From Patescibacteria group bacterium (GTDB lineage: Bacteria; Patescibacteriota; Minisyncoccia; Minisyncoccales; JAHCRE01): a stretch of 49,596 nucleotides of DNA. Positions 1-49,596 of the stretch are shown piece after piece. Both the position numbers and the translations under genes were made by a program. How positions within the stretch are numbered: position 1 is the stretch's first letter; every line of letters begins with the position of its first letter. Below the pieces are notes generated by a model, which did not search any database, had not been told where the DNA came from, and saw only the letters and a program-made list of their open reading frames with translations. Location of the stretch: NCBI GenBank assembly GCA_020148055.1, contig JAHCRF010000004.1:1-49596 (forward strand). The letters are read 5' to 3'.

Positions 1-69
1 GATGCCGAATGCTGAGACTTAAAATAAAACAGGCCGAATTGTAGGTTTTTACTTTTCGGCTTTTTTTGT

Positions 70-795
70 TTATCTTATCTGACAGAGTTCGAAAAAGGGG
101 GCTATAGCATTACGAATTTCGATTAACTTTTCTTGAGGATAGGGTTTTATTTTCTCAAATTTTGGATTAATTGTTTTTTCTGGTCTAAAATTTTGTAAAA
201 AATATTTTCCTTGCCCTTCGAAGCCCTGGCGAAGACGGGTTGGCTCCGAAATCCAGCGAGCGATTTTTAAAATATCTTCTTTTTTGAGTAAAGTAGGAAC
301 TATTGTGGTTCGAAATTCAAAATCAATTAAGGAATTTTTTAAAATTCCTAATGAGTTTTCGATGTTTTTTATATTTATTTTTCTACCAACTAATTTTTCA
401 TATCTTTCTTTTGGGGCTTTGATATCTATGGCAACATAATCAATCAATTTCTTATCAATTAAATCTTTCAACATTTTAGGATTTGATCCGTTGGTGTCTA
501 ATTTTACTGAATAGCCCAATTTTTTTATTTTTTTGACAAACTTTGGTAAATCTTCATGAATGGTTGGCTCTCCCCCACAGATCACAACCCCCCCAATTAA
601 TCGTTTTCTTTCTTTTAAAAATCCAAAAAATTCTTTTTCTGAAATTTTAGGTTGAAATTTTATTTTTTCTGGTAAGACCAGCTCTGCTGAATAACACCAC
701 GGGCATCTAAAATTGCAGCCGATAGTAAAAACCGTGCAAGCTATCTTGCCCGGATAATCGATTAAAGTTAGTTTTTGAAGACCACCTATTTTCAT
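70..795 (-). CDS. nrdG: Anaerobic ribonucleotide reductase activating protein (radical SAM)
   Basis: CxxxCxxC (CNFRCPWC), GGEPT and DTNGS motifs; directly downstream of nrdD; carries a short palindromic insert (TRLRQGFEGQ). Confidence 0.9.
   Translation of the reverse strand: MKIGGLQKLTLIDYPGKIACTVFTIGCNFRCPWCYSAELVLPEKIKFQPKISEKEFFGFLKERKRLIGGVVICGGEPTIHEDLPKFVKKIKKLGYSVKLDTNGSNPKMLKDLIDKKLIDYVAIDIKAPKERYEKLVGRKINIKNIENSLGILKNSLIDFEFRTTIVPTLLKKEDILKIARWISEPTRLRQGFEGQGKYFLQNFRPEKTINPKFEKIKPYPQEKLIEIRNAIAPFFELCQIR
210..240. repeat. In-frame palindromic insert in nrdG
   Basis: cttgcccttcgaagccctggcgaagacgggt: GC-rich imperfect hairpin in an AT-rich gene. Confidence 0.65.
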
Positions 796-11106: not shown

Positions 11107-12015
11107 TTACGAATTTTTACGAATATACGAATTAAGATTACTGTAAATTCGTTTAATTTCTCTTTTGGCCTCTAAATTTGTTTCCAGAATTGGAATTAAA
11201 TTTGAGATGGCTTTAAAAATTTTTTTATCATAAGATATTTTACCCAGCACCATTCCTTTGGGAAAAGTGGTGCTAGGTTTACCTAAAAATTTCCTACCGG
11301 CCCATTTCTCTATTTTATCACTTAATTGAGAATTTATATCCCACTTATTTATCACTAACCCCCAGGAAAGCTTAAAATGATTAACAACTTTTAAAACTCT
11401 TTTTAAATCAGAAAATGCCGAAGGCGTTGGCTCAGTAATTAAAATAGCAAAATTTGCATCTTGCAAAGCAGCAATAACCGGACAGCCGGTTCCCGGAGCC
11501 GAATCGATTAAGATTATTTCATGTTTAAATTTTTCCGCTTTTTTTTTAATTTCAGTAATCACTTTACCAGAACCAGTTTCCCCTGGAAAAAGATTTCCTG
11601 AAACCAAAATAAAACCATGTTTTGTTTTTTTAATTTTAATTTGTCCATTTTGAACCGGTTTTAATTTGATTGCCTTTTGAGGACAAATAACTTCACAAGC
11701 TCCACAGCCTTCGCATAAAAAATTGTTGATTGTTAACTGTTGATTGTTAATTGATAAACTTTCAAAACGACAGTTTTTTACACATAACCCACAGAGGTCA
11801 CATTTTTGTTGATTAATTTCTGGCTTTGCTGAAGCGATCACTGGCAGAGTTCTATCCCATTTTTTTATTCCTCCTAACCAAATAGCTAAATTCGGCGCAT
11901 CAGCATCACAATCTACCGCTACTATTCTCTTAGTTTCTGCGAAAAGCATCGCCAAAGCCGAAGTCAACATACTCTTTCCGACTCCTCCTTTCCCCGATAA
12001 AACAACTAATTTCAT
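11107..12015 (-). CDS. MinD-superfamily P-loop ATPase with inserted ferredoxin domain
   Basis: SGKGGVGKS, DCDADAPN, two CxxCxxCxxxC, PGTGCPV, TEPT. Confidence 0.9.
   Translation of the reverse strand: MKLVVLSGKGGVGKSMLTSALAMLFAETKRIVAVDCDADAPNLAIWLGGIKKWDRTLPVIASAKPEINQQKCDLCGLCVKNCRFESLSINNQQLTINNFLCEGCGACEVICPQKAIKLKPVQNGQIKIKKTKHGFILVSGNLFPGETGSGKVITEIKKKAEKFKHEIILIDSAPGTGCPVIAALQDANFAILITEPTPSAFSDLKRVLKVVNHFKLSWGLVINKWDINSQLSDKIEKWAGRKFLGKPSTTFPKGMVLGKISYDKKIFKAISNLIPILETNLEAKREIKRIYSNLNSYIRKNS
11239..11283. repeat. 39-bp in-frame palindromic insert with 6-bp direct repeat
   Basis: tttacc at 11239-44 and 11278-83; IR acccagcacca/tggtgctaggt; protein reads LGK-PSTTFPKGMV-LGK. Confidence 0.8.
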
Positions 12016-43480: not shown

Positions 43481-44005
43481 ATGAAAATAAAAAATATTTT
43501 TATTACTGGAAAGCCGGGCTGTGGGAAAACTAGTTTGATAATGGAAATTTTAAAAGAACTCGATTTTAATGCCGGTGGGTTTTATACAAAAGAAATTAGA
43601 GAAAGCGGGATAAGAAAAGGGTTTAAAATAACTAATCTAAATGGCAAAGAAGGAATTTTAGCCCATGTAAATATTAAAAGTCCTTACAAAGTTTCGAAAT
43701 ACAAAGTAAATACAAAAGATTTGGAAGAAATTGGAGTAAAATCAATTCTCAACGCTTTAAAAGAAAATAAAATAATCCTAATTGATGAAGTGGGAAAAAT
43801 GGAAATGATGTCTGAGAAGTTTAAAAAGACAGTTAGAACTGCTTTAAATAGTAAAAATAAAGTTTTGGGAACAATAAAAATGACGCCTGATCCCTTTACA
43901 AATAAGATTAAGGGCAGAGATGATGCAAAAATTTTTTATTTAACTAGAGAGAACCGAGAAAAAATTAAAAAAGAAATAATCAGGTTATTGAGTCCAACTA
44001 ATTAA
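43481..44005 (+). CDS. THEP1/NTPCR-type nucleoside-triphosphatase
   Basis: TGKPGCGKTS, GGFYTKEIR, IDEVGKME. Confidence 0.88.
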   Translation: MKIKNIFITGKPGCGKTSLIMEILKELDFNAGGFYTKEIRESGIRKGFKITNLNGKEGILAHVNIKSPYKVSKYKVNTKDLEEIGVKSILNALKENKIILIDEVGKMEMMSEKFKKTVRTALNSKNKVLGTIKMTPDPFTNKIKGRDDAKIFYLTRENREKIKKEIIRLLSPTN

Positions 44006-45025
44006 AGTTTCTTTCATTTTAAATTTTCCTTCAATAAATTTCTTGATGACCCAAATGTTTGTTTTGCAATGATTTGTGATTTCAGAAACGAAAACTTCAC
44101 TTTTGCCTTTAGTTAAAGCTAAAAAAGGTAAAATTTGATCAGCTAAATGTTTATCTAAACAGGCTTGAGTTTTTTGTTCCCTTAATAATTTTAAAGCTGC
44201 TTCTTTTCCGACATCTTCAGCCCTTTTTCCTAATTTTCCTAGATTATCAGTGCCAATGATTGTATTTTCAAATTCAGCTATCAGACAAATCTGGCTTCCC
44301 GGACATTGAGTTTGATAATATTCGATTCTCTCTTCAACTGGTAATTTTAACTTTCCTAAAACTTCTCTAACTCCAGCGATTTGCCTTCCAGCTACTTTTT
44401 TATTTTTTAAAAATTCTGAAGCTCCAGAAATTATCAAAATTTTTTGAAGATTACCTCTTTCTAAAAGATTGAGGTTTTTTAGTTTGGATGGACATATCTT
44501 CACCTCAACGTTTGCCCCACCTTCTGGATAATAACCTCTCTTAATTATATCAATCTCAATAGAGCGAGAAATGTTCTCGCTCTGAATCGGGATCATTTTT
44601 CCTAAAATTTTTAGAAAAACATAACGAAAATAGTCAATAGTTGGAGAGAAAAAAGTATCGGTAGCCCCGCCATTGAAAACAATCTTTATTGGTTCTGGGG
44701 CAAAAAGGGCCGGTATTATTAAGGTCTGTAAAACTAAAGTAATGCTTCCAGCGGTTTCAATTTTGATATGGAGATCCTTAGCTTTAATTTCTTCTGGCCA
44801 AAATTTAATTTCTTCTGAACCCAAAAAATCTCCTTCCAATCTTCCGTTGCAAAGCTTAGCTAGAGCCTGAATTCCCAAAAGATGTTGAGGCATTAAACCC
44901 GGCTTTGATCTTTTTTTCCGAATATTGAAAATAAAACAAGGTTTTTTAGTGACTGCCGAAAGTGCCGAAGCCACTCGAAGTATCCCCCCACCGCCCTCAA
45001 ATTTTGAACCGTCAATTTCAATCAT
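43985..45025 (-). CDS. rtcA: RNA 3'-terminal phosphate cyclase
   Basis: IDGS..EGGG.ILR, PGL..QH, RGYYPEGG, HLADQ. Confidence 0.92.
   Translation of the reverse strand: MIEIDGSKFEGGGGILRVASALSAVTKKPCFIFNIRKKRSKPGLMPQHLLGIQALAKLCNGRLEGDFLGSEEIKFWPEEIKAKDLHIKIETAGSITLVLQTLIIPALFAPEPIKIVFNGGATDTFFSPTIDYFRYVFLKILGKMIPIQSENISRSIEIDIIKRGYYPEGGANVEVKICPSKLKNLNLLERGNLQKILIISGASEFLKNKKVAGRQIAGVREVLGKLKLPVEERIEYYQTQCPGSQICLIAEFENTIIGTDNLGKLGKRAEDVGKEAALKLLREQKTQACLDKHLADQILPFLALTKGKSEVFVSEITNHCKTNIWVIKKFIEGKFKMKETLISWTQ
44561..44593. repeat. In-frame hairpin insert in rtcA
   Basis: Perfect agagcgagaa-atg-ttctcgctct followed by gaatcgggat; encodes IPIQSENISRS. Confidence 0.65.
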
Positions 45026-48647: not shown

Positions 48648-49415
48648 TTAGTTTTTTAGAAGATTTTTAAGCCATCTTACTGTATTTTGAATCAGCCTCT
48701 TTTGAATGTAATAATTTTCGTCAAATTTATGGCCAGCTTTTGGAAGGGCTATTAACTTTATGTTTTTGTAATCTTTAACTAATTGTCTTGAAAACTTTAT
48801 TGGAACTGTCTCATCTTTTTTTCCATGGATTATTAAAATAGGAATTTGAACCTGAGAAAGTAAAGGAGTGTAATCCTTCTTTTCATTCTCTTTTAGATAA
48901 CCAATCCCAAATTTTTTGTCTTTTCTGATCAAATATCCTCGTTTTTTCCATTTCTTTAAATCATTTTTGGTATGCCAAAAAGGAATCAACTTCTTCTGGT
49001 AAAAAGCCGGGCTCCAAAAAACTAAAGTTTTAGCTGAAAAATTATTTTGAACTACGTATTTCAGAACGACTACTGCTCCAAAACTTTCGGCAATAAAACC
49101 CATCCTCTTTTTATCAATATTCTTTTGTTTTAAAACATAACCTAAGGCTAAATCTAAATCCTGAGTCTCATTTTCCACAGTGGCTATTTCAAGCTTTCCT
49201 TCTGAATCGCCACATCCTTCAAAATCGAATCGAAAACTCGCGATCTTTTTTTTAGCTAAAACTCGAGCCAATCTCACTAATCTCCTTCGAGTTTTTGTCG
49301 CTCCAAATCCATGACAAATAACAACCAAAGGAAACTTCTTTTTTCCTCTTGGAATATGTAAAATCCCTATTAATTGCTTTCCTCTTTTATTTTTAAAAAC
49401 AACCGGCTTTTCCAT
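48648..49415 (-). CDS. Alpha/beta hydrolase
   Basis: CHGFG, FDFEGCGDSEG, ESFG nucleophile, IHGKKD, AGH. Confidence 0.88.
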   Translation of the reverse strand: MEKPVVFKNKRGKQLIGILHIPRGKKKFPLVVICHGFGATKTRRRLVRLARVLAKKKIASFRFDFEGCGDSEGKLEIATVENETQDLDLALGYVLKQKNIDKKRMGFIAESFGAVVVLKYVVQNNFSAKTLVFWSPAFYQKKLIPFWHTKNDLKKWKKRGYLIRKDKKFGIGYLKENEKKDYTPLLSQVQIPILIIHGKKDETVPIKFSRQLVKDYKNIKLIALPKAGHKFDENYYIQKRLIQNTVRWLKNLLKN

Positions 49416-49428
49416 AATTTAAATCTTG

Positions 49429-49596
49429 TATCCCCGGGCTGATTTTCACCCCGCACCAAATTTTTGTGCCCCCAGGAAGAGTCGAACTTCCACTTTAGTC
49501 TCCGGAGGACTACGTTCTGTCCATTGAACTATGGGGGCGTATTTTGGTGCGGGGCGGGCAGCCATCCTCAGCTCCGGAGGCTGATGCTTTATCCAT
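49429..49596 (-). tRNA. Interrupted tRNA-Arg(CCG) (outer; 5' end outside window) with a 110-bp insert at 49449-49558
   Basis: ..ATGGATAAAGCA, TCAGC-CTCCGGA-GCTGA, GGAT, GGCTG [insert] TGAAAAT CAGCC CGGGGAT A. Confidence 0.7.
49467..49538 (-). tRNA. tRNA-Arg(CCG), intact (inner)
   Basis: GCCCCCA/TGGGGGC acceptor, GTTC/GAAC D stem, TAGTC-CTCCGGA-GACTA, GGAAG-TTCGACT-CTTCC; no encoded CCA. Confidence 0.93.

Follow-up and report, generated by a model that had tools for sequence, protein, structure and literature searches.

A tRNA-Arg(CCG) gene nested within a second tRNA-Arg(CCG) gene of a Patescibacteria genome, and the hairpin element that probably placed it there

At the 3' end of contig JAHCRF010000004.1 of a Patescibacteria group bacterium (assembly GCA_020148055.1), a complete tRNA-Arg(CCG) gene lies on the minus strand within the T-loop of another, interrupted tRNA-Arg(CCG) gene. 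The window analyzed here is this entire contig of 49,596 nucleotides, one of the 14 contigs of the 487-kb source genome (G000), which contains a tmRNA and 42 tRNAs. The resident gene was probably disrupted by a non-autonomous mobile hairpin element, and the tRNA that this element carries (the cargo) probably replaces it in function. The element, ~110 bp in length and a member of a widespread family with arms CCCCGCACCAA/TTGGTGCGGGG, would then separate position 53 of the resident tRNA-Arg(CCG) from position 58, and its hairpin loop would hold an entire tRNA-Arg(CCG) that belongs to a different lineage type and, as the only Arg(CCG) gene of the cell, would take over the function; insertion into an essential single-copy gene would be tolerated for this reason. 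Transcription of the cargo would start at the resident promoter and run through the outer 5' half, and the arms would form a 12-bp leader-trailer helix from which RNase P and 3' processing would free the cargo, while selection for expression and replacement would account for the co-orientation and the identical anticodon of the two genes. The matching cargo may have arrived together with the element, or the target may have been copied when the element inserted.

The layout can be read directly from the minus strand (Table 1). The outer 5' fragment consists of a D-loop piece (ATGGATA), the 3' strand of the D stem (AAGC), a single A, the anticodon arm TCAGC-CTCCGGA-GCTGA, the variable region GGAT, and the T-stem strand GGCTG, which is complementary to the strand CAGCC at the start of the outer 3' fragment. 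The inner tRNA-Arg(CCG) is complete, is called by both ARAGORN and Rfam, and is enclosed by a perfect 12-bp inverted repeat (CCCCGCACCAAA/TTTGGTGCGGGG), the arms of which are paired in the minimum-free-energy fold of the locus. Both outer halves, the insert, and the arms were found letter by letter as described in the initial annotation, which had proposed a tRNA nested inside another; the likeness it saw between the inverted repeat and palindromes at 11242 and 33749 turned out to be weak. Among the 42 tRNAs of the assembly, the cargo is the only Arg(CCG) gene. Rfam matched two tRNAs in the window and nothing else, and neither ARAGORN nor Rfam called the outer tRNA there. The contig stops within the outer D loop, and its 3' end (49596) overlaps no other contig of G000, so that the outer 5' end lacks ~14-15 nt; it is for this reason that the acceptor pairing is uncheckable in G000 and that a tRNA was called in 0 of 108 boundary variants after in silico deletion of the insert. 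Inverted repeats of 12 bp are no rarity in this window (12 overlapping 12-mer pairs vs. 0-5 in 20 shuffles), and the weight of the case lies in the conservation of the layout rather than in the inverted repeat alone. Junction-like matches of 12-14 nt elsewhere in G000 (C5:125513, C1:13718, and C7:14083) were dismissed as chance or terminator matches.

Comparison of the locus by BLAST with 60 relatives revealed the same nested layout in G025 (C7, 85% identity over query 16-156) and at two places in G050 (C40, 78%, and C1, 67% over query 1-180), i.e., in genomes that belong to the same order and to families other than that of G000. G025 and G050 have a complete outer tRNA, with pairing acceptor strands (GCCTTTG/TGAGGGC and GCCCCTG/TGGGGGC). 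Outer and inner tRNA of G050:C40 are both Arg(TCT), and upon removal of the insert ARAGORN calls the outer one as tRNA-Arg(TCT) in 5 of 64 boundary variants (0 of 64 for G025). The cargo tRNA-Arg(CCG) of G050:C1 (L022:320-392) has the anticodon loop CCCCGGA, i.e., C33; U33 is near-universal in tRNAs. The initial annotation had suggested a search for an uninterrupted allele in relatives, and one is present at the syntenic site of G015, where the ortholog (59% identical, 254 aa) of the alpha/beta-hydrolase gene that follows the locus in the window is immediately preceded by an uninterrupted tRNA-Arg(CCG); the D arm of this tRNA is of the GCTT...AAGC type, as in the outer fragment of the window. 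The outer 5' piece is 94% identical (BLAST, query 2-35) to the uninterrupted tRNA-Arg(CCG) of G048, and the identity of the cargo is 86% (BLAST, query 66-135) with the Arg(CCG) of G027, which stands alone, and 85% with the G025 cargo. Thus, the outer gene has the appearance of the resident, and the inner one resembles the type of another lineage.

A metagenome scan for the T-loop form of insertion employed the pattern CCCG-arm...arm-TGAAA, so that CCCG is preselected in the nine loci obtained. All nine carry a tRNA as cargo, and in six of them the host is called with the anticodon of the cargo after deletion of the insert (Val-TAC twice, Met-CAT twice with the same sequence, Pro-TGG, and Arg-TCT); the outer genes of L055 and L077 are likewise called as tRNAs of the cargo's anticodon. 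Thirteen distinct T-loop insertions were pooled (G000, G025, G050:C40, G050:C1, L044, L055, L077, L172, L174, L175, L176, L177, and L180), some of the host and cargo anticodons being read by eye. An anticodon arm is still present in 12 of the hosts, 10 of which have the anticodon of their cargo; in the two mismatched hosts, a single C-to-T change separates the anticodons (CTG vs. CCG for G050:C1 and TTT vs. TCT for L176); the host of L177 retains only 11 nt of its 5' half. In a coarser comparison of flanks with cargos, the best match of the flanks was to a cargo of identical anticodon for 19 of 31 distinct tRNA-cargo elements. Overall, host-cargo matches span at least seven tRNA species, namely, Arg-CCG, Arg-TCT, Arg-GCG, Val-TAC, Val-GAC, Met, and Pro-TGG. 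The junctions are uniform: in 13 of 13 insertions CCYG (CCCG or CCTG) comes after the host stem, of which position 53 is the last, and in 13 of 13 the right arm is followed by TGAA and A-N-T, these last three bases being identical to the cargo's own positions 58-60 in eight. The insert therefore occupies positions 54-57. A mini-element that disrupted the resident isoacceptor while replacing its function was one of the two options put forward in the initial annotation, and it is favored by the empty allele of G015, the decaying outer genes described below, and the occurrence of the arms elsewhere; the junction is corrected from 53/54 to 53/58. A second mode of insertion is seen in the anticodon loops at L028, L048, and L054, where the element has the opposite orientation (TTTCA-arm...arm-CAAG) and the cargo is still co-oriented with the host.

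The arms define a family with a broad distribution. The exact pattern CCCCGCACCAA-N(70-100)-TTGGTGCGGGG was scanned in one-genome-per-species contigs and matched at least 119 stretches from many phyla; according to the record titles, the hosts include many candidate-phyla-radiation groups, Saccharibacteria, Planctomycetota, Omnitrophota, and Bdellovibrionales, as well as Elusimicrobia, KSB1, Cytophagia, Ignavibacteria, and others. The pattern occurs in 6 of 400 genomes of the order to which G000 belongs (4 of 328 high-quality genomes), and no match was obtained in viral contigs. In some cases a single metagenome-assembled genome (MAG) contains several distinct copies, the stems of many copies are 16-20 bp long, and the copies are intergenic or located in loops of genes for tRNA, 16S, 23S, and RNase P RNA. 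Three positions were assigned by means of Escherichia coli sequences: L085:3256-3356 presumably corresponds to the tip of 16S helix 44, L078:7280-7391 presumably replaces 23S helix 45, and L115:6863-6966 is taken to be P3 of RNase P RNA; two of these three elements share one Phycisphaerales MAG. Arm-like 11-mers (at most one mismatch) exceed a reversed control in all five genomes counted (10/2 in G000, which has one full element, 38/8 in G053, 40/16 in G008, and 17/1 and 23/6 in the other two). Many of these 11-mers form bare hairpins with a 3-nt loop, and some are the compensated variant CCCCACACCAA/TTGGTGTGGGG.

Cargo counts rest on 80 of the matched loci. The cargo is a tRNA in 20 of these and a ~90-nt module in 18, the conserved core of the module being GCGCGGAG-UCGCCU-N-CGGCU, in most cases with CAAG after it; the remaining 42 are varied, some being long hairpins and others four-way junctions with complementary loops. 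No Rfam family was found for the non-tRNA modules or for the arms. A variant of ~170 nt with arms CCCCGCACCTA was observed at L160:126-294, L161, and L162 (G053), and also at L027 and L029. Its cargo folds as a cloverleaf-like four-way junction with complementary loops (GAAUA/UAUUC and AAAUAG/CUAUU) and a conserved CCGCC-GAAG-GGCGG hairpin; ARAGORN does not call this cargo a tRNA, and Rfam gave no family at L027 and L029, the loci scanned. CCCCGCACCAA is identical in 10 of 11 positions to CCCCGCAACAA (G000:C6:14678-14688), which comprises the 3' acceptor strand and trailer of an initiator-type tRNA-Met, and the other arm contains GCGGGG, the 5' strand of that tRNA. The arm might also be likened to a XerC half-site, DNA-uptake sequences, a retroviral primer-binding site, or the Y RNA architecture. 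At the level of abstracts, the literature yielded no description of nested tRNAs or of this arm sequence; as the searches found none, the element family may be undescribed.

Signs of mobility were sought in the flanks of 79 copies, using a null in which flanks were swapped. Target duplications of at least 4 bp are found at 7 of the 79 copies (1.6% in the null), namely, TCAA twice, TGAA, TAAA twice, TGCAA, and one perfect direct repeat of 62 bp that abuts both arms of the element in the start of lepA at L094:5014-5131. Elements with the 90-nt module show a second kind of duplication: to their left lies a diverged second copy of a gene's upstream region and 5' part, and the intact gene follows 15-21 nt to the right of the element. 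Such intact neighbors are tRNA-Asp (L067), tRNA-Cys (L049), tRNA-Ser (L092), and, as a mirror case, tRNA-Leu (L107), and among protein genes the duplicate covers the first 12 codons of gatB (L083:175-289) or of another open reading frame (ORF; L112:83-194). Every codon difference in the L083 and L112 duplicates is synonymous, and at L065:1720-1828 the differences fall at every third base. The duplicates have therefore diverged as working genes in separate lineages, and this pattern of substitutions suggests that an orthologous piece was imported together with the element. Interrupted protein genes were also considered; the long ORFs that appear after deletion of the element turned out to be two adjacent in-frame genes, e.g., ZnuC/ZnuB-like (by eye), Sua5/PheS, and acyltransferase/GT2 (by eye), or to lie upstream of a gene start. 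Every apparent interruption of a protein gene that was checked is intergenic, and no uncompensated break was seen among them; where a gene is hit, an intact copy adjoins. Thus, surviving insertions are harmless or compensated.

The state of the outer genes differs between loci. In G050:C1, the outer tRNA has the anticodon loop CTCTGGA and two acceptor mismatches; in G025, it has runs of G.U pairs and one T-stem mismatch; and the outer genes of L176, L177, and L180 are mutated, truncated, or hold a further hairpin. An 898-nt contig from a relative carries two changes in the 5' strand of the T-stem and none in its partner, which leaves an A.C mismatch and a G.U pair. These substitutions suggest that the outer copies are relics that erode over time, older hosts being in decay.

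Several observations weigh against a mobile element that brings a replacement tRNA as its passenger. The visible stems of the outer gene in G000 are perfectly paired, which may fit a recent insertion but also retained function. A passenger model by itself leaves the matching of host and cargo across many tRNA species unexplained. At L174 and L180, the acceptor stem is the only part in which host and cargo differ, their interiors being fully identical, a pattern for which copying or gene conversion may be a better fit than import. There are two end types, TTCA/TGAA and CYYG/CRRG, and each element has one of each. Target duplications of at least 4 bp are absent from 72 of the 79 copies (45 have none at all), and the lengths of those found are not fixed (4, 5, and 62 bp). 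No transposase or recombinase tied to the element was found, and no vector is indicated by the scan of viral contigs. Y1/HUH transposases were tried as the mobilizer and rejected, being neither enriched over the base rate nor flanked by arms: Y1_Tnp-like ORFs (~250 aa) occur in four of five element-bearing genomes, G000 not among them, and in 28 of 60 relatives, and at the Y1_Tnp loci L188-L192 arms are present on both sides in none of five, L190 alone having a single arm-like match ~1 kb away. The Y1_Tnp ORFs of the relatives are ~180-290 aa long, have the HUH motif HIHLL and YIHxNP, and are often present in one or two copies.

The retained stems of the outer gene could also mean that one transcript gives rise to two tRNAs, which is the intron-like option of the initial annotation. 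In such a scheme, RNase P and RNase Z would cut out the inner tRNA, and the outer halves would either be ligated by RtcB or work as a two-piece tRNA, with the 12-bp arm helix holding the halves together and forming a helical extension of the T-loop. G000 does encode RNA ligase RtcB (G000:C13:19928-21220) and the RNA 3'-phosphate cyclase RtcA (window 43985-45025, minus strand), and the retention of both in a 487-kb genome is notable. The outer gene is called as a tRNA after deletion of the insert at G050:C40, in six of the nine metagenome loci, and at L055 and L077, and the remnant UGAAA would agree with the T-loop motif consensus U(G/U)NRA. Nonetheless, processing of this kind is improbable. 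The junction contains no bulge-helix-bulge, as the initial annotation had noted, and instead runs from the T-stem through an internal loop (CCCG vs. UGAAAAU) into an arm helix that is unbroken over 12 bp; EndA (PF01974) has no match in G000 (91.6% complete), and a control matched in four archaea. The ends left by RNase P and RNase Z are 5'-P and 3'-OH, and RtcB does not use these as substrates. The rejoined outer T-loop (UGAAAAU) would have neither U55 nor C56, and outer genes decay in G025, G050:C1, L176, L177, and L180. Furthermore, the same arms are present in intergenic DNA, in some cases with target duplications, and elements with non-tRNA cargo leave an intact gene copy adjoining, which splicing would make needless.

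Quite improbable, too, is an origin in which the arms are a hairpin signal of the host, i.e., a processing stem or bidirectional terminator, and the nesting arose from local duplication of a tRNA and subsequent decay. Bare hairpins of the same arms with 3-nt loops are common in relatives, some of them followed by T-runs near gene ends; leader-trailer helices usually present rRNAs to RNase III; and the compensatory variants CCCCACACCAA/TTGGTGTGGGG preserve pairing. Against this, the 11-mers are identical across unrelated phyla and yet found in only 6 of 400 genomes of the own order, copies lie within 16S helix 44, 23S helix 45, and P3 of RNase P RNA, one copy has both of its arms abutted by a perfect direct repeat of 62 bp, and the duplicates of protein-gene starts differ at synonymous sites only, which indicates divergence in separate lineages; a terminator between the promoter and the sole Arg(CCG) gene would, moreover, be harmful. 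It is highly improbable that the assembly fused two tRNA-Arg loci into a chimera at a repeat. The contig ends within the structure, and unitigs of source-like runs break at 49520 and 49549, but the initial annotation's call for a check of the assembly is answered by the 898-nt contig, which comes from an unrelated run and spans 49432-49596 in one piece (with 11 differences and one gap relative to the window). Contigs of two further public DNA runs tile the locus without joints, and the same architecture recurs in at least 13 distinct loci from independent assemblies. Some of the public-run contigs extend beyond position 49596. The metagenome scan revealed no near-identical copy of the G000 locus.

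Table 1. Features of the nested tRNA locus in the window, with its downstream anchor and an initiator-like tRNA of another contig of G000
Feature	Position	Strand	Basis or remark
Outer (resident) tRNA-Arg(CCG), 5' fragment	49559..49596	-	Sequence; truncated by contig end
Junction tetranucleotide CCCG (CYYG-type element end)	49555..49558	-	Replaces host T-loop positions 54-57
Left arm CCCCGCACCAAA, 12-bp inverted repeat	49543..49554	-	Sequence, family-wide conservation
Leader ATAC (4 nt), arm to cargo tRNA	49539..49542	-	Sequence
Cargo, complete tRNA-Arg(CCG), 73 nt	49466..49538	-	ARAGORN 49466/7-49538; Rfam RF00005 49467-49538, 65.1 bits
Short A-rich trailer, cargo to right arm	49461..49465	-	Sequence
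Right arm TTTGGTGCGGGG	49449..49460	-	Sequence
TGAAAAT, element end TGAA and retained host T-loop positions 58-60 (AAT)	49442..49448	-	Sequence
Outer tRNA, 3' fragment: T-stem CAGCC, acceptor CGGGGAT, discriminator A	49429..49441	-	Sequence
Alpha/beta-hydrolase gene (Pfam Hydrolase_4, Abhydrolase_1), downstream	48648..49415	-	Synteny anchor
Initiator-like tRNA-Met	G000:C6:14680-14751		

The neighbors of the element in the window are housekeeping genes, and G000 is a bacterial genome. Its assembly is that of a cut-up graph: several contig ends, including window 1-77, show 77-nt end-to-end overlaps (e.g., the 3' end of C4 with the 5' end of C9, and C7 with C10), and the 3' end of C9 has no 77-nt partner. 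ARAGORN called a tRNA-Ile with the anticodon TAT at G000:C5:60374-60447, an anticodon that is uncommon in bacteria. tRNA-Thr(TGT), tRNA-Ala(TGC), tRNA-Ile(GAT), and tRNA-Gln(CTG) were not found in the assembly, which is 91.6% complete.

Mobile DNA that enters an essential gene normally splices out, as introns and inteins do, or rebuilds the end of the gene, as do tRNA-targeting islands. Here, a gene-less element of 110 bp lies within a single-copy tRNA gene of a 487-kb genome, and a spare tRNA of the same kind within it probably keeps the cell alive. If confirmed, the replacement of the disrupted tRNA by the cargo of the element would represent a distinct strategy for the harmless invasion of essential genes. 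By this means, tRNA genes of ultra-small bacteria could be replaced horizontally, and pseudo-halves of tRNAs and broken contigs in metagenome assemblies, which are missed by tRNA finders, would be accounted for. The arm sequence common to many phyla points to a widely distributed enzyme or host factor. A more far-reaching version, which we regard as possible but tentative, is that the nesting is produced by the insertion itself, i.e., that a new kind of protein-less hairpin element found across phyla enters loops of essential structured-RNA genes and, in doing so, copies its target into or next to its hairpin, or brings an orthologous copy. In that case, every insertion would be self-compensating, and the element would constitute a DNA-level alternative to splicing. 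Bolder still would be the processing of the transcript into two working tRNAs by RNase P, RNase Z, and RtcB.

Among known systems, the islands and prophages that target tRNA genes by means of tyrosine integrases come close to the element proposed here: they insert in the T-loop or anticodon loop, the function of the gene is kept by the incoming tRNA sequence, the displaced fragment of the resident gene remains, and imported and resident copies differ as orthologs do. K. Williams has reportedly distinguished anticodon-loop and T-loop sublocations of tRNA-targeting integrative elements. Unlike such islands, the present element is ~110 bp long and without an ORF, holds a whole tRNA between inverted arms with fragments of the resident gene on both sides, and has neither direct att repeats nor an integrase within or beside it. 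Miniature inverted-repeat transposable elements (MITEs) and REPINs, which are moved in trans (e.g., by RAYT/Y1), resemble it in being small and ORF-less, with conserved inverted ends and a long hairpin, and in their patchy distribution; several copies in some hosts and the occasional short target duplication may be further common traits. In contrast to these, the ends of the present family are identical across many phyla, loops of structured RNAs are preferred, the cargo is a tRNA or otherwise structured, some target duplications are long or diverged, and no cognate transposase was found. The intervening sequences of bacterial rRNA, e.g., in 23S helix 45, are removed by RNase III without religation. 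They are comparable to those family members that replace the tips of 23S helix 45 (L078) and 16S helix 44 (L085), in E. coli numbering, and not to the copy in the window; they are not known to share one end sequence across phyla, sit in tRNA genes, or carry tRNAs.

Further parallels exist with the mobile and non-canonical tRNA introns and the split or permuted tRNAs of archaea, which also involve a small insert at a non-canonical position, a conserved helix at the junction, and related copies in different tRNA genes. The present case differs in its bacterial host, in the absence of EndA and of a bulge-helix-bulge (3-nt bulges flanking a 4-bp helix), in an insert that is a full tRNA, and in outer genes that decay. 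Group I introns likewise interrupt tRNA genes of bacteria that remain viable, but they sit in the anticodon loop, whereas the present insert is in the T-loop and, at 110 nt, is too short for one, with no Rfam group I match and no ribozyme core. Integron attC sites have the core sites RYYYAAC and GTTRRRY (R''/R'), unlike the ends CCCCGCACCAA/TTGGTGCGGGG. The element is related to known kinds, i.e., to tRNA-targeting DNA that restores the gene, to MITE/REPIN-like elements, and to rRNA intervening sequences, and there is a fair chance that its mechanism is new.

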